Origin: an uncultured cyanobacterium
GTDB lineage: Bacteria; Cyanobacteriota; Cyanobacteriia; PCC-9006; JAAUQQ01
DNA: 64,000 nucleotides
Reading direction: 5' to 3'
Assembly: GCA_963718615.1 (NCBI GenBank)
Contig: OY970368.1
Coordinates: forward strand, 2,720,001-2,784,000
The position numbers and the translations under genes are program-made. Numbering within the stretch: the stretch's first letter is position 1; the number at the start of each line of letters is the position of its first letter. Below the pieces are notes generated by a model that worked only from the letters and a program-made list of their open reading frames with translations, did no database searches and was not told where the DNA came from. Positions 2,131 through 41,741 of the stretch are shown one piece after another.

Positions 2131-2235
2131 ACCAATCGATTATGACAGCTCAGGAATCGGCTGATGCCTGTCCTGATTTTTGTCTTCTGGGTTAGAAATA
2201 GAAAGAAAGTTAGATTCGCTCAGGGGTCTTTATCC

Positions 2236-5200
2236 ATGGCTGTGATTACGATTCGGGAAAAGGCAACCACGGATTCTGATTTTACGGCGGTGGTGAGTTT
2301 TGATGGTCAGGTCGAGTACCCGGTCTCAATCAGCGATCCGTTTGCGGAACGGCCCAATCAGGAAAAGGAGCTGGAGTGGTATTTCGAGGGCTGGCTGCGG
2401 ATGCCGATGCTGGATACCACCATTGCGGAGCGGGCTGCGGCGAGCGTTGCGACCTATGGGGAACGTTTGTTCCAGCAGGTTTTCAAGGCGAATGCGGATG
2501 CCTATGCGGACTACCGAGGGTTGCGCAATCAGCTCAGCCAAGTTCAAATCGAGATTCAGGGCAGTTCTCCGGCGTTTCAGGCGTTGCATTGGGAGGCGCT
2601 GAAGGATCCGGATTTGCCGCGCCCGTTTGTGGTGGATGCGGTGATGTTGCGCAAGGATGTGCGGCCCAAGAGCAGCCGGGTGACGATGCAGCCGTCGCCG
2701 GTGATTAATTTGCTGGTGGTGACGGCGCGGCCCGATGAAGAAAAGGATGTGGGCTACCGGACGATTTCTCGGCCCCTGATCGAGGCGATTCAGCAGGCAC
2801 AACTACGGGTGAATGTTGAGCTGCTGCGTCCGGCGACGTTCCGGGCGCTGAGTGAGCATTTGCAGGAAAAGGGCGAGGGGTTTTATCACATTGTCCATTT
2901 TGATGCCCATGGCGGGTTGATGACCCACGGGCAGTTTCAGCAAGGGGTGGAGCGGAACCGCTATCTCTATCAGGCGCGCTATGGCCGCAGCGATCTGCAA
3001 CCCTATGAGGGGGTGAAGGCGTTTTTGTTTTTGGAAGGGGATAAGGCGGGGGAGGCGGACCCGGTGGAGGCGTCGGAATTGGCGGAGCTGCTGACGGGTA
3101 AGGGCGTGCCGGTTTGTATTCTGAATGCCTGCCAGTCTGCCAAGCAGGAGGGGCCGGTGGAGACCAGTCTGGGCAGTCGGCTGATGGCGGCGGGGATGCA
3201 GATGGTGGTGGCGATGGGTTATTCGGTGACGGTGACGGCGGCGCAGATTTTGATGGAGAAGCTGTACGCCAAACTGTTTGAACAGAAGGGGATGGCGGAG
3301 GCGATGCGGCTGGGGCGGCTGGAGCTGTATAACCGCAAGGAGCGGCGGGCCTATTTTAATCAGATGATTGATCTGGAGGATTGGCTGTTGCCGGTGGTTT
3401 ATCAGAACCGGACGGTGGAGCTGAATCTGCGGGAGTTTTCGCCCCAGGAGGAGAATGCCTATTACGAGGCGCTGGGGCGTCAGTTTCAGTTTGGCGTGAA
3501 TTTTAAGGGAGCGACCTATGGGTTTGTGGGTCGGGATTTGGAGATTCTCAAGATTGAGCGGGCGCTGCTGCGGCACAATGTTTTGCTGCTGCGGGGCATG
3601 GGCGGAACGGGGAAGACGACGCTGCTGAATTATCTGCGGGAGTGGTGGCAGGGGACGCGGTTTGCCCAGGAGATTTTCTATTTTGGCTATGACGAGAAGG
3701 CATTTACGCTGGAGCAGATTGTCTTTGCCATGGGTCAGCAGATCTACAGCCCAGCGGATATGTTGTCGTTTCAGGCGATGGGGCTGGTGGCGCAGGTGGC
3801 GAAGCTGAGTGCGAAGCTGAAGGCAGAGCCGTTTGTGTTGATGTTGGATAATTTGGAGTCGGTGACGGGGCAGGCGTTGGCGATTCAGAATACGTTGCCG
3901 CTGGCGGAGCAGGAGAAGATTCGGGATTTTCTGGCGCGGCTGGTGGGGGGCAAGACGCGGGTGCTGTTGGGCTCGCGCAGTCCGGAGGATTGGCTGAAGA
4001 CGGTGTATGGCGAGAATGTCTATCCGTTGCGCGGGTTGGATCAGGAGTCGCGGACAGTGTTGGCGGAGAAGATTTTGGCGCGGCAGGTGAAGGATGGGGG
4101 GCGGATTGAGCAGATTCGGGTGGATGCGGAGTTTGGGCGGTTGATGACGCTGTTGGCGGGGTATCCGTTGGCGATGGAGGTGGTGTTGGCGAATTTGGCG
4201 CGGCAGTCGCCTGCTGAGGTGTTGGCGGGGTTGGATGGGGCGGATGTGGATTTGGATGGGGGGAGCGGAGCGGGGGCGGCGGCTGGGGGGCAGGACAAAA
4301 CAACCAGCATTTTGAAATGTGTGGAGTATTCTCACAGTAATTTGTCGCCGGAGGCGCAGCGGTTGCTGTTGTGTTTAGCTCCGTTTCGGGGGTTTATTTT
4401 TCGGGATGCTTTGCCGCAATATGCTGCGCAGTTGAAGCAATTGGATGCGTTTTCGGATTGGGATTTTGGGCTGCTGGAGGGGGCGGTGCAGGAGGCGATG
4501 GATTGGGGGTTGCTGTCGCCGATTTCTGAGGAAACAGATCGGTTGTTGCGGATTCAGCCGGTGTTTCCCTATTTTTTGCGGACGAAGCTGCGGGAGCTGG
4601 ATGAAGAGGTTCAGGCGGCGCTGCGGGAGGGGTTTAAGAATCACTGTCGGGGGTTGGCGCAGTCTTATTTTCAGTTAATGACTTCGAAGGAGGCACAGGA
4701 GCGGCAGCTTGGGATTTTCTTCTGTCGGTTGGAGTATGAGAACTTGTATGCCGCATTGGAAACTTGTCTAACGCAGCAGGAAGAATTTTCGATTTTTCGC
4801 TGTCTCGATCAGTTTTTAGATCTTTCCGGTGATGTTCAATCGCGATTGGTGCTGTGCCAGCTCGTTTGTGAACAGGCTGGAAACTATCCCGCCGAGCAAT
4901 GCCTGGGTGAACGGGCAACTGATATCGCTGAAGCCTTATTGAAATTGGGAAATTGTTATTACAAAGCCCAGCAATACGAAACTGCTCAAGAAGCGTATCA
5001 GCAAAGTATTGAAATCCTGAAGCAATCCGGCAATCGCCAAGACTCAGCCACGGTCTACCACCAGTTGGGAATCGTCGCCCAGCAATTGCGCGAGTATGAG
5101 GAAGCCCGCCGCAACTATCAGCAGGCGCTGGAAATCTTTGTTGAATTTGGCGATCGCTACTCCCAAGCCAGCACCTACGGCCAGTTGGGAACAGTTGCTC

Positions 5201-5994
5201 TGGAATTGCGCGAGTATGACGAAGCCCGCCGCAACTATCAGCAGGCCCTCGAAATCTTTGTCGAATTTGGCGATCGCTACACCCAAGCCCGCACCTACCA
5301 CCAGTTGGGAAGGGTCGCCGAGGAATTGCGCGAGTATGACGAAGCCCGCCGCAACTATCAGCAGGCCCTCGAAATCTTTGTCGAATTTGGCGATCGCTAC
5401 ACCCAAGCCAGCACCTACCACCAGTTGGGAATCGTCGCCGAGGCATTGCGCGAGTATGACGAAGCCCGCCGCAACTATCAGCAGGCCCTCGAAATCAAAG
5501 TCGAATTTGGCGATCGCTACACCCAAGCCAGCACCTACCACCAGTTGGGAAGCGTCGCCCAGAAATTGCGCGAGTATGACGAAGCCCGCCGCAACTATCA
5601 GCAGGCCCTCGAAATCAAAGTCGAATTTGGCGATCGCTACGAGCAAGCCAGCACCTACGGTCAGCTCGGCCTCCTAGCTGCAGCCCAAGAAAACTACACC
5701 GAAGCCGGTCGCGCTCTGCTCCAAGCCCTAGAAATCTTCGCTGAATTTAACGATCAACATTCAGTTGCCCAGACCATTCAAAACCTCAACCGCCTCTACC
5801 AAACCACCCAAGACGCAACCCTCCTCACCGCCGCCGCCCAACTCCTCAACACCACCCCAGACGAACTCAAAGCCGCCCCGACGCCTTCCGCACAAACCAT
5901 CCTCACCCGCACCCAAGGCAGCTGGGGCCAGAAAACTCGTGAGGAAATCGACGCTCAAATTGCACAACAGCGGCAACAGGACTGGGGAGAATAA
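2236..5994 (+). CDS. CHAT protease - P-loop NTPase (STAND/NB-ARC-like) - TPR repeat protein (NLR-like)
   Basis: CHAT His/Cys motifs HFDAHG and LNACQS, Walker A GMGGTGKTT, Walker B LMLDNLE, GYPLAM motif and C-terminal 40-aa TPRs. ATG 2236 preferred over 2164. Confidence 0.9.
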   Translation: MAVITIREKATTDSDFTAVVSFDGQVEYPVSISDPFAERPNQEKELEWYFEGWLRMPMLDTTIAERAAASVATYGERLFQQVFKANADAYADYRGLRNQLSQVQIEIQGSSPAFQALHWEALKDPDLPRPFVVDAVMLRKDVRPKSSRVTMQPSPVINLLVVTARPDEEKDVGYRTISRPLIEAIQQAQLRVNVELLRPATFRALSEHLQEKGEGFYHIVHFDAHGGLMTHGQFQQGVERNRYLYQARYGRSDLQPYEGVKAFLFLEGDKAGEADPVEASELAELLTGKGVPVCILNACQSAKQEGPVETSLGSRLMAAGMQMVVAMGYSVTVTAAQILMEKLYAKLFEQKGMAEAMRLGRLELYNRKERRAYFNQMIDLEDWLLPVVYQNRTVELNLREFSPQEENAYYEALGRQFQFGVNFKGATYGFVGRDLEILKIERALLRHNVLLLRGMGGTGKTTLLNYLREWWQGTRFAQEIFYFGYDEKAFTLEQIVFAMGQQIYSPADMLSFQAMGLVAQVAKLSAKLKAEPFVLMLDNLESVTGQALAIQNTLPLAEQEKIRDFLARLVGGKTRVLLGSRSPEDWLKTVYGENVYPLRGLDQESRTVLAEKILARQVKDGGRIEQIRVDAEFGRLMTLLAGYPLAMEVVLANLARQSPAEVLAGLDGADVDLDGGSGAGAAAGGQDKTTSILKCVEYSHSNLSPEAQRLLLCLAPFRGFIFRDALPQYAAQLKQLDAFSDWDFGLLEGAVQEAMDWGLLSPISEETDRLLRIQPVFPYFLRTKLRELDEEVQAALREGFKNHCRGLAQSYFQLMTSKEAQERQLGIFFCRLEYENLYAALETCLTQQEEFSIFRCLDQFLDLSGDVQSRLVLCQLVCEQAGNYPAEQCLGERATDIAEALLKLGNCYYKAQQYETAQEAYQQSIEILKQSGNRQDSATVYHQLGIVAQQLREYEEARRNYQQALEIFVEFGDRYSQASTYGQLGTVALELREYDEARRNYQQALEIFVEFGDRYTQARTYHQLGRVAEELREYDEARRNYQQALEIFVEFGDRYTQASTYHQLGIVAEALREYDEARRNYQQALEIKVEFGDRYTQASTYHQLGSVAQKLREYDEARRNYQQALEIKVEFGDRYEQASTYGQLGLLAAAQENYTEAGRALLQALEIFAEFNDQHSVAQTIQNLNRLYQTTQDATLLTAAAQLLNTTPDELKAAPTPSAQTILTRTQGSWGQKTREEIDAQIAQQRQQDWGE
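5045..5680 (+). repeat. About five near-identical 120-bp TPR-coding tandem repeats
   Basis: GAAGCCCGCCGCAACTATCAGCAGG recurs at 5101, 5221, 5341, 5461 and 5581. Confidence 0.95.
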
Positions 5995-6000
5995 AGCCCG

Positions 6001-16527: not shown

Positions 16528-17997
16528 ATGGTTCTTCCCATGACCTCCTCTCGATTGCTTGAGCTCGCAAAACAAGGCAGCGCCCCAGCGATCGCCACGC
16601 TGCTCAACCAGCAGTTACAGGCTAAGGGAATTTCGGCGATCGCATCTCGCCAAGGTCACTGTTTGCGGCTGCTTCTAGAGGCTGAGACGGAACCTCGGCA
16701 GGGCGCGATGGAGCAATATTTGCAGCATGCGTTTACGAAGCTAGAAGCGCTTTCTATTCAGCAGATTGAGGTTTATGGACGCGCGAAGGGATCCCTCAAA
16801 GGTTGGCAAACGCTGCTCTGTTTAAGCAACGGCTCGTTTGAACCAGCCACGTTCGTTTTTCCGAAGGTCTCATCTCAGTCATTCTCCCGACGAACGTCTC
16901 AATCGGCTCAATCCTCCCCTGCAATTTCGGCTAGAACTTCGGCCAAAACTTCAGTCAGAACCTCGACCCAAACATTACCCCAGCCTGTGGTCAAAACCTC
17001 GCTATCCAAGGGCTGGCGTCAGTCTTTTCCTCAGTTTCGGCGGCCTCGTTTTTTACAGCGACTGCAACCTGCCCCAACACCCACGCCCCAAACCCCTAAG
17101 CCCCCAACGTCCGCGAGCCCTCTTCGTTCTTTCTCCCCCCAAACCCCAATCGCCTTGCCCAAAATCTTGAGCGGTTCGTTTTGGAAAACTCGAACGAGTC
17201 AGATGTATCAGCAAACGATGCAGGTGCTCCATCGGCTTAGTCAGGGTCTACAGGATTGGGTTCTTCAGCCGATTGCTGAGTTTTTGGGTATTTGGTTGCA
17301 GTGGCAAATTGCAACGTTTGCCGCAACGTTAGTCACTGGATTTTTCGCAACGGTGAGTCTAGGGCTGATCTTTTTTGGCATTTTTAGTTTGTTTAATCGG
17401 ATTCCAGAGACGCAAGAATTCTTCCCGGTGCTCATGGGGATGATGACGATGATTCCGATCGCGGGTCTGCTGCTAGGTGATGCGCAAACGCGGCTCTTGC
17501 AACGCTGGCTACGACCCATCGGAGCGTGGCGATGGCTGACGATGGTGGGGTTTATGTTGGGATTTGGGGTGGCGCTGGGGATGCATTTTTTGATTTGCGC
17601 GATCGTTGAACCGCTGTTAACCCGGCCCAATCCAGAGTTTGTGATTGGTGTAAGTTTTGCCTTTATTGCAGTGACGATTGCGGTCGGATTAGGATTTGGG
17701 GTGCTCGGAGCACTGCAATGGTTGCCCCTGCGCGCCAGGGTGCCTCAGGCTTCCCAATGGATGATTATTAATCCCCTGGGGGCGATCGCCAGTTGGATTC
17801 TAGGAATGTTGATCGCGGGTCGTTGGCTGGGGCCGCTTTTGTTGGGCGATCGCGCTTCGGGTTCTAGTTTTTGGTCGACGCTCGGTCTATTTTTTGGAGG
17901 AGGCTTGCTCTCTTGGTTAATTTTTCATCTGATTAGCGGAGTCACGATGGCGCAGCTTTTGCGGCGGTTGCCTCGGCTGGAGGATGAGCGTTTATGA
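16528..17997 (+). CDS. Hypothetical multi-pass membrane protein with a cyanobacterial N-terminal domain
   Basis: N-terminal LAKQG...AIATLLNQQL motif, Ser/Pro-rich linker and about six hydrophobic segments. Start uncertain. Confidence 0.7.
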   Translation: MVLPMTSSRLLELAKQGSAPAIATLLNQQLQAKGISAIASRQGHCLRLLLEAETEPRQGAMEQYLQHAFTKLEALSIQQIEVYGRAKGSLKGWQTLLCLSNGSFEPATFVFPKVSSQSFSRRTSQSAQSSPAISARTSAKTSVRTSTQTLPQPVVKTSLSKGWRQSFPQFRRPRFLQRLQPAPTPTPQTPKPPTSASPLRSFSPQTPIALPKILSGSFWKTRTSQMYQQTMQVLHRLSQGLQDWVLQPIAEFLGIWLQWQIATFAATLVTGFFATVSLGLIFFGIFSLFNRIPETQEFFPVLMGMMTMIPIAGLLLGDAQTRLLQRWLRPIGAWRWLTMVGFMLGFGVALGMHFLICAIVEPLLTRPNPEFVIGVSFAFIAVTIAVGLGFGVLGALQWLPLRARVPQASQWMIINPLGAIASWILGMLIAGRWLGPLLLGDRASGSSFWSTLGLFFGGGLLSWLIFHLISGVTMAQLLRRLPRLEDERL

Positions 17998-18058
17998 TCT
18001 CAACTAAATCAAAATCGGTTGTCAGGGGTTTTGAATTGTTGGGTCACTGAATTCGAGT

Positions 18059-18247
18059 GTGTTGGGGTTTCATCAGGTTTCGGAGCAGGCTCAAGCCCGT
18101 CTGGGGGAGCTGTTGGAGCGCACTCGGGTGGCTCAGTTGACGCCGGGTGAGGTGGCTGAGCTGGATTTGTATGAGCAATTGGACCAGATGATGCGGATGC
18201 TGAAGATGCGGACGTTTGCGATCGCCCCTCAGGCCAAGGTTTCTTGA
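18059..18247 (+). pseudogene. C-terminal fragment of a small antitoxin-like protein
   Basis: SEQAQARLGELLE....LTPGEVAELDLYEQLDQMMRMLK resembles the C-terminal half of a common cyanobacterial small protein. No good start codon. Confidence 0.45.
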
Positions 18248-18573
18248 GTGTTTTCGGTTGGAGGGTGCGATCGCCCGGACTCCAAAATCACCGCTGTCAC
18301 CGCTTCCACTGATTTTGCTTGTAGGGTGGATACAAGACACAGCGCTTTATCAACCAAGCGAGCGGCGTCCTCGTAGCTTTCTTGATTCGGCAAAACCAAT
18401 TGAATCGGCTGACCTTGATCGTCGGTGCCAACGGTTTTGTTGGCTTGGAAAATGCGTAGTCGAGGGTTGGGATGGGAAATTTCGGTCCAGTCGTGCTTGA
18501 GCAGGTAGGCCGCGAAATCAGCGGGCGGGAGAGCCCCGACTTGAGGGGAACTGGTGAGAATTTCGGCGGTCAT
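18229..18573 (-). CDS. Hypothetical protein (typical partner downstream of DUF4365)
   Basis: ATG 18573 overlaps (ATGA) the stop of the upstream remnant. Pattern AAYLLKHDW...LVLP....YED. Confidence 0.6.
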   Translation of the reverse strand: MTAEILTSSPQVGALPPADFAAYLLKHDWTEISHPNPRLRIFQANKTVGTDDQGQPIQLVLPNQESYEDAARLVDKALCLVSTLQAKSVEAVTAVILESGRSHPPTENTQETLA

Positions 18574-18765
18574 GGCCACTCTCCTGTCTTGACTTTCTGC
18601 ATTAAGGCTAGCAAAGATTCTGGGGTTAGGCGTTGTCGGCGATCGATGCGGATGCGAACGGTGCGCCGGTTATCGCTGAGGCTGCCGCTCAAATACTCCC
18701 AGTAGCAGGCTCCGCGTAGCTTCATTACTAGAATATTGGCCGAGTCGAGATTTTGGGACCAGTTT
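18570..18765 (-). pseudogene. C-terminal remnant of a DUF4365-like protein
   Basis: Manual translation ...LRGACYWEYLSGSLSDNRRTVRIRIDRRQRLTPESLLALMQKVKTGEWP* matches the DUF4365 C-terminal pattern. The 5' part is absent. Confidence 0.55.
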
Positions 18766-18828
18766 ATGAAGCATATTTTTCGATGGAATTTCTTAAAGGG
18801 GGGTAACAGATGAGAGTGTTATGGGAGT

Positions 18829-19896
18829 ATGATTCCTGAGCTACCAGGGTTTGATATGAGTGAGATCGATGCTCGGGATTACGCTGATTTTTTCTGTACT
18901 GTGCAGGAGCGGATTCGCGATCGCCAACTCAATGCGCTGCGCAAGATCAACCATGAACTGGTTTCGCTCTATTGGGAAATTGGGCAGTTGATTCACCAGA
19001 AGCAGGAAGCTTTGGGCTGGGGAAAGTCGGTTGTCGAAACGCTGGCGCGAGATTTGCAGACAAACTTTCCTGGGCAAAAGGGCTTCTCGGCTCAAAATTT
19101 GTGGTTCATGCGCCAGTTTTATGACGAGTATGCTGACCAACCAAATCTCCAACCACTGGTTAGAGAAATCAGTTGGACCAAAAATCTGGTGATTTTCAGT
19201 CGCTGTAAGGATATGTTGGAGCGGGAGTTTTACCTACGGGCGACGGCTCGCTATGGCTGGACTAAGCGGGTGCTTCAGCATCAGCTAGATAACAAAAGCT
19301 ATGAGAAGTTCTTGCTCAATCAGACCAATTTTGAGGAAACGCTGCCGGAGGAAATTAAGGGGCAAGCGCTGCTGGCGCTGAAGGACCGTTATACGTTTGA
19401 TTTTTTGGAGTTGGCGGATGCCCATTCGGAGCGGGAGCTAGAGCTAGCGCTGGTGCAGAATGTGCGGGTGTTTTTGGCTGAGCTGGGTGGGGCGTTTGCG
19501 TTTCTAGGGAATCAGTATCGCTTGGAGGTGGGTGGGCAGGAGTATTTTATTGATTTGCTGCTGTTCCATCGGCGATTGCGCTGTTTGGTGGCGATCGAGC
19601 TAAAAATTGGGGAGTTTAAGCCGGAGCATAAGGGCAAGATGGAGTTTTATTTGGAGGCGTTGGACCGGCAGGAGCGGATGGAGGGGGAGAATGCGCCGAT
19701 TGGGATGATTATTTGCCGTTCTAAGAATAAGACGGTGGTGGAGTATGCGTTGCGGACGGCGAGTCGTCCGATTGGGGTGGCAACCTATGAGATTGTGCCG
19801 CAGTTGCCGGAGGCTTATCGGGAGGAGTTACCGAGTCCAGAGGCGATCGCGGAACGACTAAGACTTTGGGATGCAAGAAAGGTTGAAGATCAATGA
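18829..19896 (+). CDS. DUF1016 / YhcG family PD-(D/E)XK nuclease-domain protein
   Basis: LYWEIG, WGKSVVETLARDL, GFSAQNLWFMRQFY, LKDRYTFDFL and FIDLLLFHRRLRCLVAIELK motifs. Confidence 0.93.
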   Translation: MIPELPGFDMSEIDARDYADFFCTVQERIRDRQLNALRKINHELVSLYWEIGQLIHQKQEALGWGKSVVETLARDLQTNFPGQKGFSAQNLWFMRQFYDEYADQPNLQPLVREISWTKNLVIFSRCKDMLEREFYLRATARYGWTKRVLQHQLDNKSYEKFLLNQTNFEETLPEEIKGQALLALKDRYTFDFLELADAHSERELELALVQNVRVFLAELGGAFAFLGNQYRLEVGGQEYFIDLLLFHRRLRCLVAIELKIGEFKPEHKGKMEFYLEALDRQERMEGENAPIGMIICRSKNKTVVEYALRTASRPIGVATYEIVPQLPEAYREELPSPEAIAERLRLWDARKVEDQ

Positions 19897-19947
19897 ATTG
19901 AGAGATATGTCCTACCTCAAAAAGAGGTAGGGGGCTGGGGGTGGCAG

Positions 19948-22900
19948 TTAGGGCCACTGCTTGCAGATGTCGCGGGTGGTTTGGAGGAGGGTGGAGAAGG
20001 TTGCGTCGTTGCTGAGGTGGAGGAGGATGAGGGGGCGGATTTTGGGGAGGGCTTTGAGGAGGGCACTGCGGTTTTGGTAGGCGAGGGTGTCGAGGGTTTT
20101 GGCCCAGTCGGGGAAGGTTGGGGTGAGTTGGAGGAGGTGGGGCAGGAAGCCTTGCAGGGCTTTGGCGCGGAAGTAGGGGTCTTGGATATTCCAGGCGGCT
20201 TGTAGGGATTGGGGGAGGAGTTCGGGGGGGAGATGCTCGGCTAAACCGCTCAGGGCGATTGCCCGACTGGACTCGTCTTTGAGTTGAGAGGCCATTCCTA
20301 GCACTTCAGATAAAAGTTCCGGGAACAACTGCTTGCAGAGTCTAATCAGTGTCCAAAGCTGAAGAGCCCGCTGTCTTTCATCTTTGAGTTCTCGGGTGAC
20401 TTCCAGTGCTTCGGGCAATAACTCCGGCAACTGTTTCGAGAGTTCTACCAGGGCATCAGCTCGCTGCCATTCCTCTTTGAGCCCTCGGGTGACCTCCAGT
20501 GCTTCGGGCAATAGCTCGGGCAACTGTTCTGAGAGTTTTCTCATTCCCCAAGCCCGCTGCCATTCATCTTTGAGCTCTCGGGTGACTTCTAGCGCTTCGG
20601 GCAATAGCTCGGGCAACTGTTTCGAGAGTTCTCTCAGTGCAGAAGCCCGCTGCCTTTCATCCTTGATGTCTCGGGTGACCTCCAGTGCTTCGGGCAATAG
20701 CTCAGGCAACTGTTTGGAAAGTTCTATCAGTGCATCAGCCCGCCGCCATTCAGCCTTGATGTCTCGGGTAACCTCCAGTGCTTCAGGCAATAGCTCCGGC
20801 AACTGTTTCGAGAGTTCTATCAGTGCATCAGCCCGCCCCCCTTCATCCTTGATCTCTCGGGTGACCTCCAGAGCTTCGGGCAATAGCTCCGGCAACTGTT
20901 TCGAGAGTTCTCTCAGGGCATCAGCCCGCGATCCTTCATCTTTGAGTTCTCGGGTGACCTCCAGAGCTTCGGGCAATAGCTCCGGCAACTGTTTCGAGAG
21001 TTCTCTCAGGGCATCAGCCCGCTGCCATTCATCCTTGATGTTTCGGGTGACCTCCAGCGCTTCCGGCAATAGCTCCGGCAACTGTTTCGAGAGTTCTCTC
21101 AGGGCAAAAGCCCGCTCCCATTCCTCTTTGAGTTCTCGGGTGACCTCCAGTGCTTCGGGCAATAGCTCCGGTAACTGTTTTGAGATTTCAATCAGGGCAA
21201 AAGCCCGCTGCCATTCCTCTTTGAGTTCTCGGGTGAGCTCCAGCGCTTCGGGCAATAGCTCCGGCAACTGTTTGGAGAGGTCTCTCAGTGCATAAGCCCG
21301 CTGCTGTTCATTCTTGATATCTCGGGTGAGCTCCAGCGCTTCTGGCAATAGCTCGGGCAACTGTTTGGAGAGGTCTATCAGTGCATAAGCCCGCTGCCAT
21401 TCATCTTTGATCTCACGCGTGACTTCCAGCACTTCTGGCAATAGATCGGGCTGTCTTTCCGCTAAGGCCACCAAAGCCTCCGCTCGATCCGCTACATCGT
21501 TCATGCTTCGAGCCAGATCAAGGACCTCACCCAGATAACTAGCAGGCAGCTTAGAAGATAACTGAGTGATCGCAAAGGCACGATAGGAAAAACCTTCATT
21601 TTGATGGCGATGATTCCCAAAACGATCCTGAATCTGACGAATTGTTTCCAAAACCTCCGGCCAAAACTGCGGAAACCGTTCTGCCAGCTCAGCCAATACA
21701 TAGGACCGATAGGCCGCATCCCGAATCCCAGCCACCGCCCGCAACACCTCATCCAACAACGCCTCCGGCATATAGGGCACAATTGCAGCAATACACGCCG
21801 CCCGCTGCCAAGGATTCTGCGCCTGCTGGGCATAGGCCAACCCCTGGGCCGGTGACCAAACCTCCGCCTGCACCAACGCCCCCACCAATGACCCAGGCAC
21901 ATTACTCGCCAAACTATTCAACGATCCCCGGATCAAGGCATAGCGCCACAACAGCACCAGCGTCTCCCCCGGTGCCGCCTGATAATTCTCCACCGCCAGC
22001 CGCCAAGCCCGCCCCAGATCATTGACAAATCCCGCCGGTTTGCCGATCGCCTCACAAGCCTCAAACCACCCATTCTGCCCCCGCCCATTGCTCGCCGCCA
22101 ACAACCGATGAATCTCCTGGGGCTGCCGCGCCTGCTCCAGGTGCCAAGTCAACTGGGCAAAAATATAGCCATCATCCGCCAGCGTATGCCACTGCCCCTG
22201 GTCCGTCCGCGCCCGATACCGCTGCAAAAACTCACTGTGGGCCTCCGCCTTCGTCAGCCCCAGCCCCGGCAAATCCCCCGGCTCCAGAGGTTGCGGCGGA
22301 CTGATCAACAACCGCTGGGCCAAATCATGCATCAAATCATGCATCCGGTACGTCCGCCGATTGCCCGACCGCTTCACCCCCTGCAACAACAACGCCTTCG
22401 CACTAAACGTCCGCAAAATCGACCCCGCTTGCCGCGCCGTCACCTGCCACAACATCACCGCCATCTCCTGGGTCAAGCTCACATCCTCCGGCACAATCCC
22501 CAACCAAGCAAACTGCCGCAACTGCTCCAGCGAAAGCTGCTTCAGACTCAGGTTAAAACAAGCCAGCAAACTGTACCTGCGCCGCTTGGCATCATCCGGG
22601 ATATCCTCCCGCCCATACAAATCCAACCCCTCCAGCCGCGCCACCTCATCCCGAAAATCCTCAAACAACTCCGTCCAACTCACCCCCTCCTCAATCTGCG
22701 ACGCCGCCAATTCCAACGCCAAGGGCAAATAGCCCACCCGCTGAGCAAACGCCAACGCCTGCTGCCGATCCGCCTCGCTCAACGCCTCCGACAACTTCTG
22801 CGTCATCAGTTCCAACGCCTGCTCCGGACTCATCACATCCAAGTCATAGCGGTGCGCCTCCGAAATCCGCGCCTCCCGCGTCGTCACCAACACACAACAG

Positions 22901-24105
22901 CCCGTTCCCCCCACCCGAAACGGCTCCAGATGATCCGGATTCCAAACATCATCAACAATCACCAACGCCCGCTTATCGTAGAGCAACGTCCGCAAATGGT
23001 TCGAGGCCGACTCGATCGCCGTCGGCGTAAAATCGTTATCCCCCAACGCCTGAATCCAACCGCTCAACAACGGCAAAATATCCGGACTCTGCCCCAACGT
23101 CGCCCACAAAATCCCATCACAAAACCGCGCCTGCACCTGATCATCATGGGCCAACTTCGACGCCAACACCGACTTGCCAATGCCCCCCAAGCCATAAATC
23201 GCACTCACCACCAGTGTCCCGTAGGTCCTCGCATCCTCACAGAGCAACTGCTGCTTTACCTGTTCCTGGTGTTCAGGCCGCTCGACAAAATGATCCGGCA
23301 GCGGCGGCATTTGCAGCGGAATCGCCCGGTTGCGGTAAGACTGGGGCGCTGGCTTCTGGGCTACCTGGGACTCCGGCGGCACAGTGCCAAACGTCAGAAT
23401 CATCGACCCACTCGTACTGTGACACCGAAAGCCCTGAATCTGACCCTTCAGCCGCTGCTCCAGGGAATGGGTCAACGCCCCACTCGTCACATCCCCCCGG
23501 CTCGGGTCCAACCCCTCCAAGAGCGCAGCGGTCAAAACACTGTAGGGCGACGCCAAATCTTCGTAGGATGCCTCAAAATCGCGGGAAGACGTGATGAAAT
23601 AGCGATCGCGCACCTTCCCCCCCTTCGTACTCGTCAACTCACCAAAATTCAACAACGTTCCACTACTGCAACAATCCAACCAAACAATCTGCTGCCGCAC
23701 CGCGCTCTGCTCCAGCTGATCCCGCAGCCATTGCAGCTCCACCCCATAGTCATCCTCTGGGTCCCCATTGCTCGGAGCCAGATAGCCCTCCGTAGCGCTG
23801 ATAGCCTTCTTCCAACCATGTCCCGAAAAATACAGCAACGCCGTATCCGGCACCTGATCGCTGCTGGGCGGGTTAAACAGTTGAACGATGGCTTCCCGCA
23901 TTTGCTTTCGAGTCACCGGAATTTGCTGAGCGACCTGAGGATTCCCGGAGGCGATCGCCTCCGGCAACCGTTTCACCGTCGTAAAACGCCCGTGCTGCTC
24001 TAGGCGTTGGGCGATCGCCTCCGCATCCGTCGCAGGTGCTTTGAGATTGCCAAATTTGGAATGAGAATAGCAGTTGATACCAACAATCAGGGCGTCTCGA
24101 CTCAT
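19948..24105 (-). CDS. Caspase-like (C14) protease - NB-ARC - helical domain - 31-aa tandem helical repeat protein (NLR/APAF-like)
   Basis: ALIVGIN.Y, FSGHG and LDCC dyad motifs, Walker A GLGGIGKS, Walker B IVDDVW, GYLPLAL, MHDL and C-terminal repeats. Confidence 0.92.
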   Translation of the reverse strand: MSRDALIVGINCYSHSKFGNLKAPATDAEAIAQRLEQHGRFTTVKRLPEAIASGNPQVAQQIPVTRKQMREAIVQLFNPPSSDQVPDTALLYFSGHGWKKAISATEGYLAPSNGDPEDDYGVELQWLRDQLEQSAVRQQIVWLDCCSSGTLLNFGELTSTKGGKVRDRYFITSSRDFEASYEDLASPYSVLTAALLEGLDPSRGDVTSGALTHSLEQRLKGQIQGFRCHSTSGSMILTFGTVPPESQVAQKPAPQSYRNRAIPLQMPPLPDHFVERPEHQEQVKQQLLCEDARTYGTLVVSAIYGLGGIGKSVLASKLAHDDQVQARFCDGILWATLGQSPDILPLLSGWIQALGDNDFTPTAIESASNHLRTLLYDKRALVIVDDVWNPDHLEPFRVGGTGCCVLVTTREARISEAHRYDLDVMSPEQALELMTQKLSEALSEADRQQALAFAQRVGYLPLALELAASQIEEGVSWTELFEDFRDEVARLEGLDLYGREDIPDDAKRRRYSLLACFNLSLKQLSLEQLRQFAWLGIVPEDVSLTQEMAVMLWQVTARQAGSILRTFSAKALLLQGVKRSGNRRTYRMHDLMHDLAQRLLISPPQPLEPGDLPGLGLTKAEAHSEFLQRYRARTDQGQWHTLADDGYIFAQLTWHLEQARQPQEIHRLLAASNGRGQNGWFEACEAIGKPAGFVNDLGRAWRLAVENYQAAPGETLVLLWRYALIRGSLNSLASNVPGSLVGALVQAEVWSPAQGLAYAQQAQNPWQRAACIAAIVPYMPEALLDEVLRAVAGIRDAAYRSYVLAELAERFPQFWPEVLETIRQIQDRFGNHRHQNEGFSYRAFAITQLSSKLPASYLGEVLDLARSMNDVADRAEALVALAERQPDLLPEVLEVTREIKDEWQRAYALIDLSKQLPELLPEALELTRDIKNEQQRAYALRDLSKQLPELLPEALELTRELKEEWQRAFALIEISKQLPELLPEALEVTRELKEEWERAFALRELSKQLPELLPEALEVTRNIKDEWQRADALRELSKQLPELLPEALEVTRELKDEGSRADALRELSKQLPELLPEALEVTREIKDEGGRADALIELSKQLPELLPEALEVTRDIKAEWRRADALIELSKQLPELLPEALEVTRDIKDERQRASALRELSKQLPELLPEALEVTRELKDEWQRAWGMRKLSEQLPELLPEALEVTRGLKEEWQRADALVELSKQLPELLPEALEVTRELKDERQRALQLWTLIRLCKQLFPELLSEVLGMASQLKDESSRAIALSGLAEHLPPELLPQSLQAAWNIQDPYFRAKALQGFLPHLLQLTPTFPDWAKTLDTLAYQNRSALLKALPKIRPLILLHLSNDATFSTLLQTTRDICKQWP
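20330..21450 (-). repeat. About twelve 93-bp tandem repeats encoding LPELLPEALEVTRxxKxExxRAxALxELSKQ
   Basis: Repeats read directly in the protein; GCCCGC anchor at 20552 and 20645 gives the 93-bp period. Confidence 0.95.
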
Positions 24106-25105: not shown

Positions 25106-25132
25106 GGCGATCGCAATAGAATTAAATAGGCT

Positions 25133-25498
25133 TTAGGAAGCAGCAATGATGCCCTCATCGGCTCCTTTTGACTCATTGCAAGATGGACAGGTAATCCAAA
25201 GATTTGTAGTAACGACCGCGAGTTCAGGATTTTTAGACAGTGGCTTTTTATGATCGATATGAGAGCCTTTCAGTGGAATTGGAGTTTGGCAAATGGCACA
25301 ACATCCCGATTGATACAAATACTGTTGTGCTTTCCAGGTCTGACCAGCTGTAGAATCCCGCCATCGATTAAAGCAAGCCCTCGGCGAATATTTTTGATGG
25401 ATGCGATCGCTGTCCTTCTTAAACTGGGTGATCTGTATTTTCTTGATTTTCGATAGTTCAAATATGCCTTGAACCAAATCTTTAAACGGAGATTTCAT
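25133..25498 (-). CDS. HNH endonuclease
   Basis: CAIC...HIDHKKPLS......NL.ITCPSCNESKG. ATGA overlap with the upstream gene. Confidence 0.88.
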   Translation of the reverse strand: MKSPFKDLVQGIFELSKIKKIQITQFKKDSDRIHQKYSPRACFNRWRDSTAGQTWKAQQYLYQSGCCAICQTPIPLKGSHIDHKKPLSKNPELAVVTTNLWITCPSCNESKGADEGIIAAS

Positions 25499-38771: not shown

Positions 38772-41741
38772 ATGATGGCGATTGACTACTCAGTGTGCTG
38801 CGAGGAAAAGAGTGTGTTTCTTCTGGAACGACACAATGGCTTAGTGCCCGGTGAATTGCTTCTGAGCTTGTTTGCTGTTGGGTTGATACCGTGCGAGGCG
38901 ATCGCCCAAATCCAACCCGATGCCACCCTCGGTGCAGAAAATTCCCAGGTCACAGCCGCAATCCAGAATGGAATCTCCACCTACGACATTACCGGCGGTG
39001 CAGTCAGAGGCAGCAATCTTTTCCATAGCTTTGAGCAGTTTTCAATCGCAACGGGAGAGGTTGCACGTTTTCGCAGTGGGGGGGCGATCGCAAACATCCT
39101 TAGCCGAGTTACGGGCGGCGGACGTTCTAGCCTAGATGGTACGCTGGCCGTGGAAGGGAGTACAAATCTATTTTTCTTAAATCCAGCGGGCATTATGATC
39201 GGCCCGAATGCTCAGCTTGATCTGAAGGGGTCTTTTACGGCGAGTACTGCTGAAGGTTTGGCCTTTCTGGATGGTTTTGTTTACAACAGTGAGCTGCCAG
39301 GGACGTTACCTTTGCTCACTGTAAGTACGCCTGTTGGGATAGTTTGGGGCGATCGCCCTGGTTCTATCCAAGTATTTAGTCAATCTCCCGACCCAGCAAC
39401 GGGATTAGGCTCAGGGCTGAAGGTAAACCCTGGGCAAACGCTGAGTTTGATCGGGGGAGGAATTGCGCTGGATGGCGCGACGCTGCAAGCGCCAAGCGGT
39501 AAAATTTCGCTGTTGAGTGCTGGGGATATTCGGCTGGCGAATCAGTCGTTGGTGGATGTCAGTGGGGTAGGGGGTGGGGAGATTGAGGTGGAGGGACAAG
39601 AAATTGTTTTGACGGGGCGATCGGCCCTGATTTCGGATACGTTTGGGGAAGTGGATGGGAAAGGGATTTGGATTGAGGGCGATCGCATCCAACTGTTAGA
39701 GAGCTCATACCTTGGCGCGGCAACCTCTGGAGCTGGGAATAGTGGCAGCATCCAGGTAAATGCGGCTCAAGACATTGAGATCACAGGCACAGCGATTGCT
39801 AACTATAAACAAATCGAGCTCAATTCTTTTTTAGGAACAAGACAGATTGAGGAGCGTGCGATCGGAGGTATTGTAACCACAACAACAGCCTCAGGACGCA
39901 CGGGAGATATCTCTCTCAACGCACAAAGACTGTCGCTGAACCAGGGCGTGCTGGTCTCCACCGAAACCTTTGGGACTGGAGACAGCGGCGATATTAGCGT
40001 TGTGGCAACAGACTCAGTCCGCCTTGGCGGCTCGGGCATCCTAGCCGGTAGCCGCAGCACTGGCATCGCCATACTCACGCCCAACGGCATTCCAACAGGA
40101 CGATCCACAGTGGGCATTCCAGCCGGAAGTGGCGGCAATATTAGCATCCGCACCACCCGCCTCGCTATAGAAGATGGCAGCGGCATTGTTGCTGGAACAA
40201 CAACCGATAGCGCTTCGGGAGATCTGTTTGTCCGGGCAACGGAGTCAGTGCTTTTACGGGGTGATTTTGCACCCTTCTTTTTTCCCACATCCATTACAAC
40301 GGTGTCCATTGGAGGGAGCGGCCCTGCTGGCGATCTCACCATTGAAACCGGTCGGTTGTCGGCTCAAGATGGCGCGCCGATTTTTGCTGATTCAGGTGCT
40401 CGGGCAATTGCGGGTCGAGTAGATGTGGGTGGCCCTGCTGGAAACGTGACGATTACAGCGACTGAATCAGTAGAGCTGATCGGCGGCCAGCCGCTTTTTG
40501 GCGTGTTTATTAGTAGCGGTATTCGTTCCAGGACGTTCACCGCAGCATCTGCGGGTACGGTGCAAATTACAACACCGATGCTGATACTTCAAGATGGCGG
40601 GCAAATTACCAGCGCCGCCCGAAATTCGGGTGATGGCGGTGCCATTAATATCAATGCCCAAACGGTGCTTGTCTCAGGCGCGGGTAGCGCCGACGCTGAT
40701 GCCCGTAGCGGCATTGTTGCCAGTGCAGGCGTTGCAGCCCAAACATCGTTTGTTACGGGTGAGATCATCTCTGTACCCGCTAGCGGAGCCGGAGGCACCA
40801 TCACCCTTAATGCGGATAACGTGACGGTACAAGACACCGCTGAAATATCCGTCGGTAGCTTTGGCTCAGGCGGTGCGGGTAATCTGAATCTCACCGCTGG
40901 TACTGTCCGTTTGGCTCGCGGTGGCAGCCTGAGCGCGGCAACAACCTCGGGTGAAGAAGGCAATATTACGGTGACCGCTGGCCAGCTAACGATCGATGAC
41001 AGCAGCATCACAGCGACATCTGGCAGGAGTAACGGTGGCAATCTATCGTTTGAACTGCAAAATTTTCTGTTGCTCAGAAACGGCAGTCTGATTTCGACAG
41101 ACGCGAGGACGGCGACCGGAGCTGGCGATGGCGGCAATATTGTCTTTGAAGGCGGGTTTATTTTGGCTGTTTCTGGCGAAAACAGTGACATGATTGCCAA
41201 TGCCTTCCAGGGGCAGGACGGCCGCATCAACCTATCAGCCCAAGCTATTTTGGGACTGATGACGAGCAGTGGCTTGAGCACGACGGAGCTACGCCGAAAC
41301 AAGACAAATGACATTAGCGCTAGTTCTGAGTTGGGACCCCCTGGAGAGGTACGGCTACAAAATCTAGCGGCTAACCCAGAGCAAGGGTTGGCAGAGTTGC
41401 CGGAGGAACCGCTGAGTGGCGAACAGTTGATTAGCCAAAACCTTTGCTCAGCGAGTTCGCAGCGCAGTGAGTTTGTCGTCACAGGCCGGGGTGGAGTGCC
41501 CGCCGCTCCCACCGATACCCTCAGCGCCTTGCCCGTCTGGGAAGACGGTGGGCAAGCAGACGCGGCTCGCAAAACGTCCAGTCCTTTGGTGGAAGCACAA
41601 CGTTGGCGCACAACCACTGACGGTAAGGTGGTTCTCTATGCGGCGGTTCCGGCTTTGGTGCGATCGCGATCGCCCAGTTGCCAAACCATCCAGAACGCAA
41701 TCAACCCTGCATTGGATGAACGCGGTTCGTCCCTACGATGA
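38772..41741 (+). CDS. Filamentous haemagglutinin N-terminal (TPS) domain exoprotein
   Basis: AQIQPDATLG, NLFHSF..FSI, NILSRVTGG and NLFFLNPAGI. Gly-rich beta-helix repeats and C-terminal FVVTGRGGVP / LVEAQRW. Start uncertain. Confidence 0.9.
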   Translation: MMAIDYSVCCEEKSVFLLERHNGLVPGELLLSLFAVGLIPCEAIAQIQPDATLGAENSQVTAAIQNGISTYDITGGAVRGSNLFHSFEQFSIATGEVARFRSGGAIANILSRVTGGGRSSLDGTLAVEGSTNLFFLNPAGIMIGPNAQLDLKGSFTASTAEGLAFLDGFVYNSELPGTLPLLTVSTPVGIVWGDRPGSIQVFSQSPDPATGLGSGLKVNPGQTLSLIGGGIALDGATLQAPSGKISLLSAGDIRLANQSLVDVSGVGGGEIEVEGQEIVLTGRSALISDTFGEVDGKGIWIEGDRIQLLESSYLGAATSGAGNSGSIQVNAAQDIEITGTAIANYKQIELNSFLGTRQIEERAIGGIVTTTTASGRTGDISLNAQRLSLNQGVLVSTETFGTGDSGDISVVATDSVRLGGSGILAGSRSTGIAILTPNGIPTGRSTVGIPAGSGGNISIRTTRLAIEDGSGIVAGTTTDSASGDLFVRATESVLLRGDFAPFFFPTSITTVSIGGSGPAGDLTIETGRLSAQDGAPIFADSGARAIAGRVDVGGPAGNVTITATESVELIGGQPLFGVFISSGIRSRTFTAASAGTVQITTPMLILQDGGQITSAARNSGDGGAININAQTVLVSGAGSADADARSGIVASAGVAAQTSFVTGEIISVPASGAGGTITLNADNVTVQDTAEISVGSFGSGGAGNLNLTAGTVRLARGGSLSAATTSGEEGNITVTAGQLTIDDSSITATSGRSNGGNLSFELQNFLLLRNGSLISTDARTATGAGDGGNIVFEGGFILAVSGENSDMIANAFQGQDGRINLSAQAILGLMTSSGLSTTELRRNKTNDISASSELGPPGEVRLQNLAANPEQGLAELPEEPLSGEQLISQNLCSASSQRSEFVVTGRGGVPAAPTDTLSALPVWEDGGQADAARKTSSPLVEAQRWRTTTDGKVVLYAAVPALVRSRSPSCQTIQNAINPALDERGSSLR

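Follow-up and report, generated by a model that had tools for sequence, protein, structure and literature searches.

The 64-kb window (the whole stretch of DNA that was analyzed) carries a minus-strand NLR-like STAND gene in which a long tandem array separates two segments of opposite base composition (Table 1). The encoded protein begins with a caspase domain (aa 5-219; Peptidase_C14, E 7.5e-13), which is followed by an NB-ARC domain (aa 279-471; E 2.2e-22), 31-aa repeats, and a 139-aa tail, and this order matches the NLR-like STAND layout of an N-terminal effector, a STAND NTPase, and C-terminal repeats. The 31-aa repeat type (x 11.7) had no Pfam match at E <= 0.001. A DUF1016 nuclease gene is convergent with the NLR gene, and a 52-bp spacer separates the two. 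The left arm comprises this spacer together with the 3' half of the plus-strand DUF1016 gene and the 3' end of the minus-strand NLR gene. The right arm is the caspase and NB-ARC coding part, where the NLR sense strand is G/T-rich, with a sense keto skew of +0.30 to +0.82 at codon position 3. The GC skew at position 3 of the DUF1016 gene is +0.71 to +0.88 at nt 601-1050 versus +0.23 to +0.55 at nt 1-600, and the weaker halo farther out has a four-fold GC skew of -0.11 to +0.61, mainly positive. A long antisense open frame lies within the right arm. It matches no Pfam family at E <= 0.001, and it is stop-free because position 3 of the sense frame is G/T and position 1 of the antisense frame is hence C/A; it is a by-product of the bias and not a gene.

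Table 1. Features of the window that bear on the composition flips (window coordinates)
Feature	Coordinates	Strand	Basis or value
NLR-like STAND gene, host of the flip	19948..24105	-	1385-aa ORF; Pfam
93-bp x 11.7 tandem array	20365..21451	.	TRF; codes for 31-aa repeat LPELLPEALEVTRELKDEWQRADALRELSKQ
Left arm, plus strand G-rich at silent sites	19200..20360	.	Four-fold G 0.64-0.71, C 0.04-0.14
Right arm, plus strand C-rich	21500..24000	.	Four-fold C 0.58-0.84
DUF1016/YhcG PD-(D/E)XK nuclease gene	18829..19896	+	YhcG_C E 1e-59, DUF1016_N E 1.8e-45 (Pfam)
Outer, weaker halo of left arm	17200..19200	.	GC skew +0.208 over 17250-19380
Antisense open frame within right arm	22108..24003	+	631 aa; ORF list
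CHAT-NACHT-TPR gene (locus 1), same flip	2164..5994	+	Pfam, TRF
Third, weaker pair, same polarity	39101..42800	.	GT>CA at GC-skew threshold 0.25

The sequence-only reading of this DNA had described a composition flip around the array, with the plus strand G/T-rich on the left and C/A-rich on the right, and the measurements bear this out. At positions 19380-20240, the plus strand has a GC content of 0.562, a GC skew of +0.492, an AT skew of -0.119, and a keto skew of +0.329; the 860-bp windows of the genome (n=14,175) have 99.9th percentiles of 0.467 (GC skew) and 0.391 (keto skew) and a 99th percentile of 0.235 for keto skew. At positions 21700-23900, the GC skew is -0.315 and the keto skew is -0.257, against 1st and 0.1th percentiles of -0.255 and -0.378 (GC skew) and -0.175 and -0.273 (keto skew) in 5,540 genome windows of 2200 bp. 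Both flanks thus rank within the outer 0.1-1% of genome windows. The sign change falls over the array, as had been proposed, and the array itself is near neutral (GC skew, -0.087; keto skew, +0.052; four-fold GC skew, +0.08 to -0.11). The contrast between the 1.5-kb flanks is +0.684, a value equaled or exceeded at 0.078% of 24,360 genome positions, and a contrast of -0.684 occurs at none of them. On both sides, the bias resides at third codon positions: four-fold sites of the plus strand are 64-71% G in bins 19200-20399, which cover the DUF1016 gene and the NLR tail, and 58-84% C in bins 21600-23999. The plus strand remains G/T-rich across the convergent junction of the two genes, and the biased phase moves there, at approximately 19900, from codon position 3 of the DUF1016 gene to codon position 3 of the NLR gene.

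Two further flips of the same polarity lie in the window. In the CHAT-NACHT-TPR gene, a left arm (~2500-5000) and a right arm (~5000 to 6500), which extends beyond the stop codon, flank a 120-bp x 5 array at 5055-5658; the GC skew is +0.332 at 2500-5000 and -0.203 at 5000-6500, and the position-3 keto skew is +0.42 to +0.88 and thereafter -0.10 to -0.46. The third pair spans a two-partner-secretion (TPS) gene and the 5' part of a TPR-CHAT gene (Pfam). Of the two weaker patches reported earlier in this region, 41800-42700 is real (GC skew, -0.318; keto skew, -0.267), whereas 39500-40200 is within the background when taken alone (+0.145 and +0.039); considered jointly, they make up a pair with the polarity of the other flips, albeit below threshold. 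The earlier argument that the same polarity on genes of opposite strands speaks against transcription or codon bias does not hold, as a G/T-rich segment followed by a C/A-rich one is its own reverse complement. Relative to the gene, both NLR genes are alike at position 3, with a sense strand that is G/T-rich at the 5' end and C/A-rich at the 3' end, and the comparison of the two genes is therefore void.

The polarity is a property of the genome. Its 202 patches include 26 neighboring pairs of the order GT>CA and 2 of the order CA>GT, the latter two being places where one unit borders the next. The ratio of GT>CA to CA>GT window pairs ranges from ~2:1 to 90:1 at spacings of 2-6 kb and is near 1:1 at 10-20 kb, and the GT>CA excess is robust to the choice of measure and threshold. 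Tandem arrays, which were defined by TRF alone and without regard to skew, show the same order. The left flank is G-rich and the right flank C-rich, giving a positive left-minus-right contrast, in 28 of the 29 in-gene arrays; the median contrast is +0.40, and the contrast correlates with array length (rho 0.52, p 0.004). When all 40 arrays are considered, 12 are flanked by GT>CA patches, none by CA>GT patches, and none by patches of the same sign; flips are found in 2 of the 286 array-free genes of at least 800 aa. The mean flank skew at the 29 in-gene arrays is approximately +/-0.2 up to 1.8 kb from the array and ~0 past 3.5 kb, in line with the decay with distance that the sequence-only reading had suggested measuring, and the decay curves are alike for host genes on the plus strand (n=10) and on the minus strand (n=19). 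In the strongest units, the skew peaks beside the center and declines outwards. However, 15 of the 26 centers, for example in restriction-modification genes, have no array inside 1 kb, and the array is therefore not the sole kind of center. The centers are specificity modules, including arrays, hsdS, and the MmeI TRD, and the flips are hosted by NLR-like, TPR-CHAT, restriction-modification, and two-partner-secretion genes. As to nuclease genes, 2 of 10 PDDEXK_2 loci adjoin a unit, and the DUF1016 loci number 3 in all; such small numbers do not support any link to PD-(D/E)XK genes.

A sign change from G to C excess resembles that at a replication terminus, and the flips share with replication strand asymmetry an excess of G+T on one strand, a peak at third positions, and, in the case of the latter, an attribution to single-strand exposure. 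They differ from it in scale, which is 2-6 kb and not that of a replichore, in strength, which reaches 0.8-0.9 at four-fold sites, and in number, with dozens of "termini" but no matching "origins". A replication origin or terminus was rejected as the cause on the grounds that the 100-kb GC skew is irregular (mean absolute skew, 0.013) with no replichore-scale component, the flips recur every few hundred kilobases, and the arms end at ~3.5 kb. Alternatively, each host gene might be a mosaic whose halves had opposite strand histories before domain shuffling brought them together, or the product of an inversion. Switches are indeed often located at domain or array edges (<=25 bp from the array end in four units), but random joints cannot yield a single polarity in 28 of 29 arrays or in 26 versus 2 pairs, and the density of HIP1 (1.1 per kb in patches and 1.44 per kb genome-wide) is close enough to the genome level to indicate that patch DNA is native. 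Homologs of several families also flip at about the same place. In the part of their study drawn on here, Merrikh and Merrikh (2018; PMC6220195) read local GC-skew reversals as gene inversions, in which whole genes keep the sign of their former strand. The flips resemble this record in that the GC skew of a gene-sized segment departs from that of its surroundings. However, they change sign, always with one polarity, inside single intact ORFs whose Pfam domains are in the normal order, and an inversion of the kind set out there cannot flip part of an intact ORF. A mosaic origin is scarcely credible on this evidence, and the polarity counts bring it close to refutation.

Several observations show that the flip belongs to the DNA strands themselves and has a center, irrespective of which strand codes. 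In 115 patches the G/T-rich strand codes, and in 87 it does not. Beyond the host gene, the signed skew does not depend on how the neighboring DNA is read: it is +0.111 for same-strand neighbors, +0.123 for opposite-strand neighbors, and +0.114 for non-coding DNA (se ~0.02 each). The bias extends 1.2-2 kb upstream of start codons and downstream of stop codons, continues into intergenic flanks, and enters, as a G-rich halo, the 5' ends of divergent genes. In addition, abutting gene ends agree in plus-strand sign, both convergent (n=294, rho.22) and divergent (n=214, rho.16). The DNA-level, centered nature of the pattern follows from this agreement, the neighbor-independent skew, the left arm lying on opposite-strand genes, and the flanks and decay at the 29 arrays; the skew at the NLR gene lies outside the genome background and does not follow gene orientation. 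A gene-linked component also exists: at a given distance from an array, the skew is +0.24 to +0.32 within the host gene and +0.09 to +0.14 beyond it, a two- to threefold difference.

This component is one of the points in favor of selection on the mRNA or translation of the host gene. According to this explanation, G/U-ending wobble codons would be favored in the 5' half and C/A-ending Watson-Crick codons in the 3' half, and a long speed ramp or long-range 5'-3' pairing would curb the expression of costly genes. In each of the 21 co-oriented units, it is the 5' arm that is G/T-rich, and among the 73 genes of at least 1200 aa the 5'-minus-3' difference is >0.4 in 14 and < -0.4 in none. The flip is also kept in MmeI-like homologs at 29-66% amino-acid identity, where silent sites are expected to be saturated. 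However, the bias is just as strong in opposite-strand neighbors and non-coding DNA and continues into intergenic flanks, and codon positions 1 and 2 are shifted in the same direction as position 3. Some genes, including hsdR and that of the S8 peptidase, have a reversed polarity relative to the gene, exactly as the DNA-level rule predicts. Highly expressed genes, with ~.35 C and ~.32 T at four-fold sites, differ from both arms in codon use, and 29 of 30 non-cyanobacterial homologs of the MmeI-like gene lack the flip. Selection on the message is thus distinctly unlikely to be the main cause.

Convergent transcription would act on the DNA itself. With a sense transcript from the 5' end and an antisense transcript from the 3' end, the non-template strand would lose C while displaced in a bubble or R-loop, and the resulting G-rich RNA would promote more R-loops, so that the bias would feed itself. 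The same polarity and the same single-strand chemistry are predicted, and transcription- and R-loop-associated skew likewise has a G-rich displaced strand. The higher skew in host genes agrees with this explanation, and at both NLR loci a convergent, sense-G-rich neighbor abuts the C-rich 3' part, namely, the DUF1016 gene at the locus in Table 1 and a 180-aa minus-strand ORF (6057-6599) at locus 1. In contrast to transcription-associated skew, the pattern does not follow gene orientation, includes upstream DNA and divergent genes, with a halo 1.2-2 kb ahead of start codons, and is missing from highly expressed genes, which are not sense-G-rich (position-3 GC skews of -0.33, -0.18, and -0.10 for phycobiliproteins, psbA/D, and EF-Tu/G, respectively). 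The strongest units fall off outwards from their centers, and we know of no reason for convergent transcription to center on arrays. This cause is considered unlikely.

The base spectrum narrows the chemistry. At four-fold sites, the G-rich strand has G.58, T.16, C.15, and A.11 where it is the sense strand and G.65, T.13, C.11, and A.11 where it is the antisense strand. From the genome to the arms, C falls from.35 to.15 and G rises from.30 to.58, with T almost constant (.20 to.16), and at two-fold sites the changes are transitions. The nearest homolog has 76% nucleotide identity, and this spectrum of C loss, which would fit C>T and C>G changes on an exposed strand, is thus read from equilibrium composition and not from polarized substitutions. 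C loss is uniform over the eight four-fold codon families, with no TC-type deaminase signature. The genome has a UDG, and the complete genome G000 has no match to the Y-family polymerase domain PF00817. The "A rule" at abasic sites, which is usual in bacteria, would yield T, but the sink is G; this and the missing PF00817 match speak against the single-stranded DNA footprint proposed below. GC at four-fold sites is.73-.76 in the arms versus.65, to which GC-biased gene conversion may contribute. It was rejected as the main cause, as the dominant signal is a strand asymmetry of G versus C and not a strand-symmetric gain of GC.

The raised GC would also be expected from selection or transmission bias for recombination-proficient ends. 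RecA prefers GT-rich DNA, and G/T-rich 3' tails, as preferred RecA substrates, would speed up cassette exchange. The polarity agrees with this explanation, the centers are specificity modules, and paralogous arms share tracts of 74-98% identity (32 matches of at least 250 bp from the 202 patches). However, the G-rich strands of the 202 patches yielded no Chi-like word with a fixed orientation; the only words standing out there are HIP1-related, plus one that is repeat-derived, and G-runs or G4 motifs are little above what composition predicts (135 versus 102 in shuffles). The four-fold gain is of G and not of G+T, and second-order selection on ~70% of silent sites over kilobases is implausible. 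This cause therefore appears highly unlikely.

Four genomes were covered, namely, the host, G002 of the same family, and samples of the cyanobacteria G029 and G157. G002 has 28.5 patches per Mb, with window pairs of 21 to 0, while the G029 sample has no patches in 800 kb and the G157 sample has two. Polarized flanks are absent at the four arrays of the G157 sample and the two arrays of the G029 sample, and arrays alone are therefore insufficient. Generality across cyanobacteria was rejected on the strength of these samples and also of 20 long CHAT genes of other cyanobacteria, none of which has a 5'-minus-3' difference above 0.4 and 4 of which are below -0.4. The gene encoding an MmeI-like restriction enzyme has the flip in seven cyanobacterial genomes and in 1 of 30 non-cyanobacterial homologs, where it is weak. 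The center of the protein is only slightly less conserved than its arms. This gene retains the flip in G157 despite the near patch-free genome sample, and its flip there looks gene-specific. The dependence on lineage fits a trait of repair or exposure.

The flip belongs to a class of patterns found throughout this genome and in the same-family genome G002. Our tentative explanation is that DNA on both sides of a fragile or recombining center is repeatedly single-stranded and that the flip is the accumulated mutational footprint of this exposure. Weakly constrained sites are pushed towards G for 2-3 kb on each side of the center, or towards T where only a transition is silent, on the strand running 5'->3' towards it. 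At the center lies a variable module of a long conflict-system gene, either a long tandem-repeat array or a module of another type. If the center broke and its ends were resected, the affected strand would be the remaining 3' single-stranded overhang; if a fork stalled there, the same strand would be the template for the lagging strand behind that fork. This match is what favors the single-stranded DNA footprint. The exposed strand would lose cytosines, re-synthesis of its partner would fix the change, and protein-level selection would restrict it to silent and non-coding sites. Saturation of the silent sites would require a high rate of exposure, which counts against this explanation. The sequence-only reading had proposed a shared break- or recombination-centered mutagenic process, of which the DNA-level, centered part stands; from composition, we infer single-strandedness, breaks, or stalled forks as the cause.

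Comparable strand-coordinated mutagenesis of single-stranded DNA occurs as kataegis in tumors, and eukaryotic microsatellites reportedly trigger mutagenesis in their flanks. In the part of the yeast resection study of Chan et al. (2012) drawn on here, C-to-T and C-to-G changes are reported on the resected 3' overhang of a reporter, with the affected base changing from C to G across the break and a reach of kilobases (PMC3521656). The flips are like these in that the altered strand is the would-be 3' overhang and the reach is in kilobases. The altered strand switches at the center, each 3'-ending strand being the altered one (26 versus 2 pairs, 28 of 29 in-gene arrays, and 12 of 40 arrays versus 0), and the kilobase decay proceeds regardless of genes, though with the stronger signal inside the host gene. 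Unlike the yeast and tumor cases, which are single somatic events in eukaryotes, the flips would be an evolutionary equilibrium footprint in a bacterium. No description of array-centered, polarized flips was found in the literature searched.

In bacteria, strand asymmetry is usually taken to reflect the direction of replication or the orientation of genes. The asymmetry described here is of kilobase scale, nearly saturating at silent sites, fixed in polarity, and centered on variable modules. Its practical consequences are long antisense ORFs that are spurious, distorted calls of codon usage and horizontal transfer, and a shift in amino-acid composition. If mutational, the bias marks DNA that is repeatedly single-stranded, and fragile or recombination-active sites could be found from sequence alone in organisms without a fixed replication origin. 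It is possible, although doubtful, that this cyanobacterial family undergoes recurrent, perhaps programmed, breaks or fork stalls at the tandem arrays and the specificity cassettes of its immune and conflict genes, where repair between the many chromosome copies would leave a kataegis-like scar of C>G/T on each 3' overhang over 2-3 kb. If so, silent-site strand bias would be a sequence-only map of recombination hot spots in bacteria, and the same map would show how sensor and specificity modules diversify.

The plus strand turns from G/T-rich to C/A-rich over an array of 93-bp repeats in a gene encoding a caspase-NB-ARC protein (the NLR gene), as the sequence-only reading had described for 19380-23900. 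GC skew and keto skew are +0.492 and +0.329 over 19380-20240 and -0.315 and -0.257 over 21700-23900, all beyond the 99th to 99.9th percentiles of same-size genome windows, and the array between these oppositely skewed flanks is compositionally neutral. With 1.5-kb flanks, the left-minus-right contrast at the array is +0.684; among 24,360 genome positions, 0.078% reach this value and none reaches it with the sign reversed. The bias at this locus sits in third codon positions: over nucleotides 1 to 2400 of the NLR sense strand, position-3 keto skew is +0.30 to +0.82, and where it peaks, third positions are about 70% G and 2% A. The biased phase is the NLR third position at 20000-20240, where sense codons end in C, and the DUF1016 third position, on the plus strand, at 19400-19880, where codons end in G. 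Plus-strand four-fold sites are 0.64-0.71 G over 19200-20399, spanning both genes, about 0.3 G within the array, and 0.58-0.84 C over 21600-23999. As for the two weaker patches proposed from the sequence, that at 41800-42700 is real, and that at 39500-40200 is not significant alone. A further weak pair of the same polarity lies at 44500-47500, where minus-strand ORFs occupy 44600-46959 and 1-kb GC skew goes from +0.22 to -0.19.

Genes and tandem arrays at the two flip loci (window coordinates)
Feature	Position	Strand	Details
CHAT-NACHT-TPR gene (locus 1)	2164-5994	+	120-bp array at 5055-5658
DUF1016/YhcG nuclease gene	18829-19896	+	convergent with NLR gene
NLR gene, 1385-aa protein	19948-24105	-	caspase aa 5-219, NB-ARC aa 279-471
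Tandem array in NLR gene, 93 bp x 11.7	20365-21451	-	codes 31-aa repeats, then 139-aa tail
PDDEXK_2 gene	24149-25105	-	

The source genome is a single contig of 6.10 Mb, of which the window covers 2720001-2784000; the window has 52% GC, and the cyanobacterial HIP1 word GCGATCGC has a density of 1.44 per kb. The NLR repeat, LPELLPEALEVTRELKDEWQRADALRELSKQ, has no match among Pfam repeat families at E <= 0.001 and looks HEAT-like by eye. PDDEXK_2 genes (Rpn-type nuclease or "transposase") directly adjoin two flip units, the one in the table and another at genome 1982517-1983194, among 10 PDDEXK_2 and 3 DUF1016 loci in the genome, one of the latter forming a fusion with a 946-aa ORF (genome 4446515-4449352) at that ORF's G-rich 3' end. 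Four-fold sites of the PDDEXK_2 gene in the window (24400-25199) are G-rich on the plus strand (GC skew +0.29 to +0.67), opposite in sign to the adjoining right arm, in low-GC DNA (0.40-0.44). Long antisense open frames lacking a Pfam family occur in the arms with G/T-rich sense strands, at 22108-24003 (+, 631 aa) and 2803-4335 (-, 510 aa); they are a mechanical consequence of the bias that would lead gene callers astray.

Across the whole genome, patches defined in 400-bp windows (absolute keto skew above 0.25, length at least 600 bp) number 99 G/T-rich and 103 C/A-rich, and the coding strand is the G/T-rich one in 115 of them and not in the other 87. Neighboring patches no more than 3 kb apart form 26 pairs running from G/T-rich to C/A-rich, here called units, and 2 of the reverse order, both of which are boundaries of adjoining units. 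This asymmetry is robust to the use of GC or keto skew and to several thresholds, and the window-pair polarity ratio is about 2:1 to 90:1 at 2- to 6-kb spacing and about 1:1 at 10 to 20 kb. Unit genes encode NACHT, NB-ARC, nSTAND1, TPR-CHAT, type I and MmeI-like restriction-modification, TPS, and caspase-FGE proteins, and a few are housekeeping genes. Among the 73 genes of at least 1200 aa, the 5'-minus-3' difference in position-3 keto skew exceeds 0.4 in 14 and is below -0.4 in none. The proposed extension to all STAND genes holds for some of them and not for all, with a GC-skew 5'-minus-3' difference above 0.4 in 11 of 38 CHAT genes of at least 600 aa (below -0.4 in 1), 2 of 15 NACHT genes, and 3 of 5 NB-ARC genes.

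Many units are centered on tandem arrays. TRF arrays with a period of at least 27, at least 3 copies, and a length of at least 200 bp number 40, 29 of them within called genes; one lies within 300 bp of 9 of the 26 unit centers (1% for random positions) and within 1 kb of 11. In 12 of the 40 arrays, the left flank is above +0.15 and the right flank below -0.15, and none shows the reverse or same-sign arrangement; among array-free genes of at least 800 aa, which served as the control, the corresponding count is 2 of 286. The contrast is positive at 28 of the 29 in-gene arrays (median +0.40; the NLR array ranks 7th at +0.68), is larger for longer arrays (rho 0.52) and in longer host genes (rho 0.58), and does not rise with repeat identity. 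Selection for recombination-proficient tails is a very doubtful explanation of the units. The expected decay with distance was found: across the 29 arrays, mean left-flank skew stays at +0.16 to +0.23 for the first 1.8 kb, is +0.07 to +0.10 between 2 and 3.3 kb, and is near 0 past 3.5 kb, with the right flank as its mirror and similar profiles for plus-strand (n = 10) and minus-strand (n = 19) hosts. No array lies within 1 kb of the other 15 unit centers, and in restriction-modification units the center falls within the specificity module (hsdS or MmeI TRD gene). Array-free genes show a contrast above 0.4 in 6 of 476 and below -0.4 in 1. GC is lower at centers (0.49-0.50) than in arms (about 0.55). 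Flank polarity is absent from a 33-bp x 9.9 array (66-bp super-period) at 49309-49636 (left +0.01, right 0.00), from short-period arrays in short genes, and from clusters of period 72 to 78 outside called genes (genome 2190671-2192421 and 5214566-5223374), which look like CRISPR arrays.

The shared polarity of locus 1 and the NLR gene, on opposite strands, had been taken to argue against transcription or codon bias. That argument fails, because a G-rich block followed by a C-rich block is its own reverse complement, and equal plus-strand polarity is therefore what gene-oriented bias would also give; in both genes, the sense strand is G/T-rich at its 5' end and turns C/A-rich by its 3' end. Independence from gene orientation is nevertheless borne out by the skew outside host genes, which is +0.111 in same-strand neighbors, +0.123 in opposite-strand neighbors, and +0.114 in non-coding DNA. 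This halo falls through successive 900-bp bins (+0.13, +0.14, +0.09, +0.05, and +0.02) and extends 1.2 to 2 kb beyond the host gene, both upstream of the start codon and downstream of the stop, distances at which other long genes show a skew of about 0; skew in host-gene interiors is stronger (+0.24 to +0.32). Convergent transcription or R-loops are an unlikely cause. Of the 26 units, 21 lie in co-oriented genes, 3 across convergent genes, and 2 across divergent genes.

The bias is a property of the DNA strand. Read on the G-rich strand, four-fold sites in patches are G.58, T.16, C.15, and A.11 where that strand is sense and nearly the same, G.65, T.13, C.11, and A.11, where it is antisense, against a background of G.30, C.35, T.20, and A.16. 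Intergenic flanks, which were used in no definition, have the sign of the adjoining coding third positions, and plus-strand third-position skews are positively correlated between abutting gene ends, at rho 0.22 for convergent genes (n = 294, p 1e-4) and rho 0.16 for divergent genes (n = 214, p 0.02). When windows are chosen on position 3 only, codon positions 1 and 2 shift modestly in the same direction. Selection on mRNA or translation seems distinctly improbable as the source; codon use of highly expressed genes is unlike either arm, and these genes are not G-rich in sense (position-3 GC skew -0.33, -0.18, and -0.10).

From the sequence patterns, we tentatively read the units as a possible mutational footprint of recurrent single-strand exposure around a putative break or arrested fork at the center, a reading that falls somewhat short of probable. 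The polarity is fixed, and either strand carries its G-rich arm on the 5' side of the center. Were the center to break and be resected 5' to 3', the G-rich strand would be left as the 3' overhang; were a fork to arrest there, that strand would be the lagging-strand template behind it. The source genome has no replichore-scale skew. PMC7198777 describes irregular skew in most cyanobacteria and, in some, replication of many chromosome copies from multiple sites; forks may therefore arrive from both sides, with plentiful sister copies for repair. In the spectrum, C is lost, G is gained, and T is little changed, with transitions where these are the sole silent change, which is similar to the joint C>T and C>G changes described for resected overhangs in yeast (PMC3521656). 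Counted against this footprint are the presence of a UDG gene and the lack of a match to Y-family polymerase (PF00817) in the complete source genome. The footprint also leaves unexplained why skew is higher within host genes, why some units have no array, and why the flip persists in one particular gene of another cyanobacterium, G157. PF00817 has 3 matches in G157 and none in the same-family genome G002 or in two other cyanobacteria, G029 and G179. The literature searched holds no account of fixed-polarity kilobase flips, whether inside bacterial genes or about arrays. Closest in concept are the skews tied to replication and transcription, resection-linked clustered mutagenesis, and local skew read as gene inversion (PMC6220195).

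The strongest unit is an MmeI-like gene (source genome 1319917-1324089). The same flip is kept by homologs in other cyanobacterial families at 29-66% amino-acid identity (G179, G157, G121, G125, G165, one Leptolyngbyaceae record, and one Nostoc record), with position-3 GC skew of +0.7 to +1.0 giving way to -0.7 to -0.9. Two homologs at 30-32% identity and one from Synechococcaceae show a weak trend only. Of 79 loci matched in a homolog search, the 33 with a match over most of the protein were profiled; in the 30 non-cyanobacterial ones, the first-minus-last difference is -0.49 to +0.27 in 29 and +0.48 in one from Thiothrix (L071), the only one of the 30 with a one-sided, G-rich 5' part (position-3 GC skew +0.28 to +0.74 over the first four deciles). 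The nearest homolog of the NLR 5' part, in G002 at 76% nucleotide identity, climbs likewise from +0.30 to about +0.8 in position-3 GC skew up to the contig end. A mosaic origin of the units is hardly credible.

Long CHAT genes, together with the G029 and G157 samples, rule out a trait general across cyanobacteria. The first 20 cyanobacterial CHAT genes of 1200-1550 aa among the matches listed include none above +0.4 and 4 below -0.4, and 20 long non-cyanobacterial ones include none and 1. G029 (800 kb, skew SD 0.087) has no patch above 0.3 and no flip, G157 (800 kb, SD 0.098) has 2 patches, and neither has polarized flanks at its arrays (2 and 4, respectively). G002 (632 kb, SD 0.129) has 28.5 patches per Mb against 29.9 in the source genome, window pairs of 21 to 0 at 4 kb, and a positive contrast at 4 of 5 arrays. 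The trait therefore belongs to the family of the source genome and G002, and elsewhere it is confined to particular genes.
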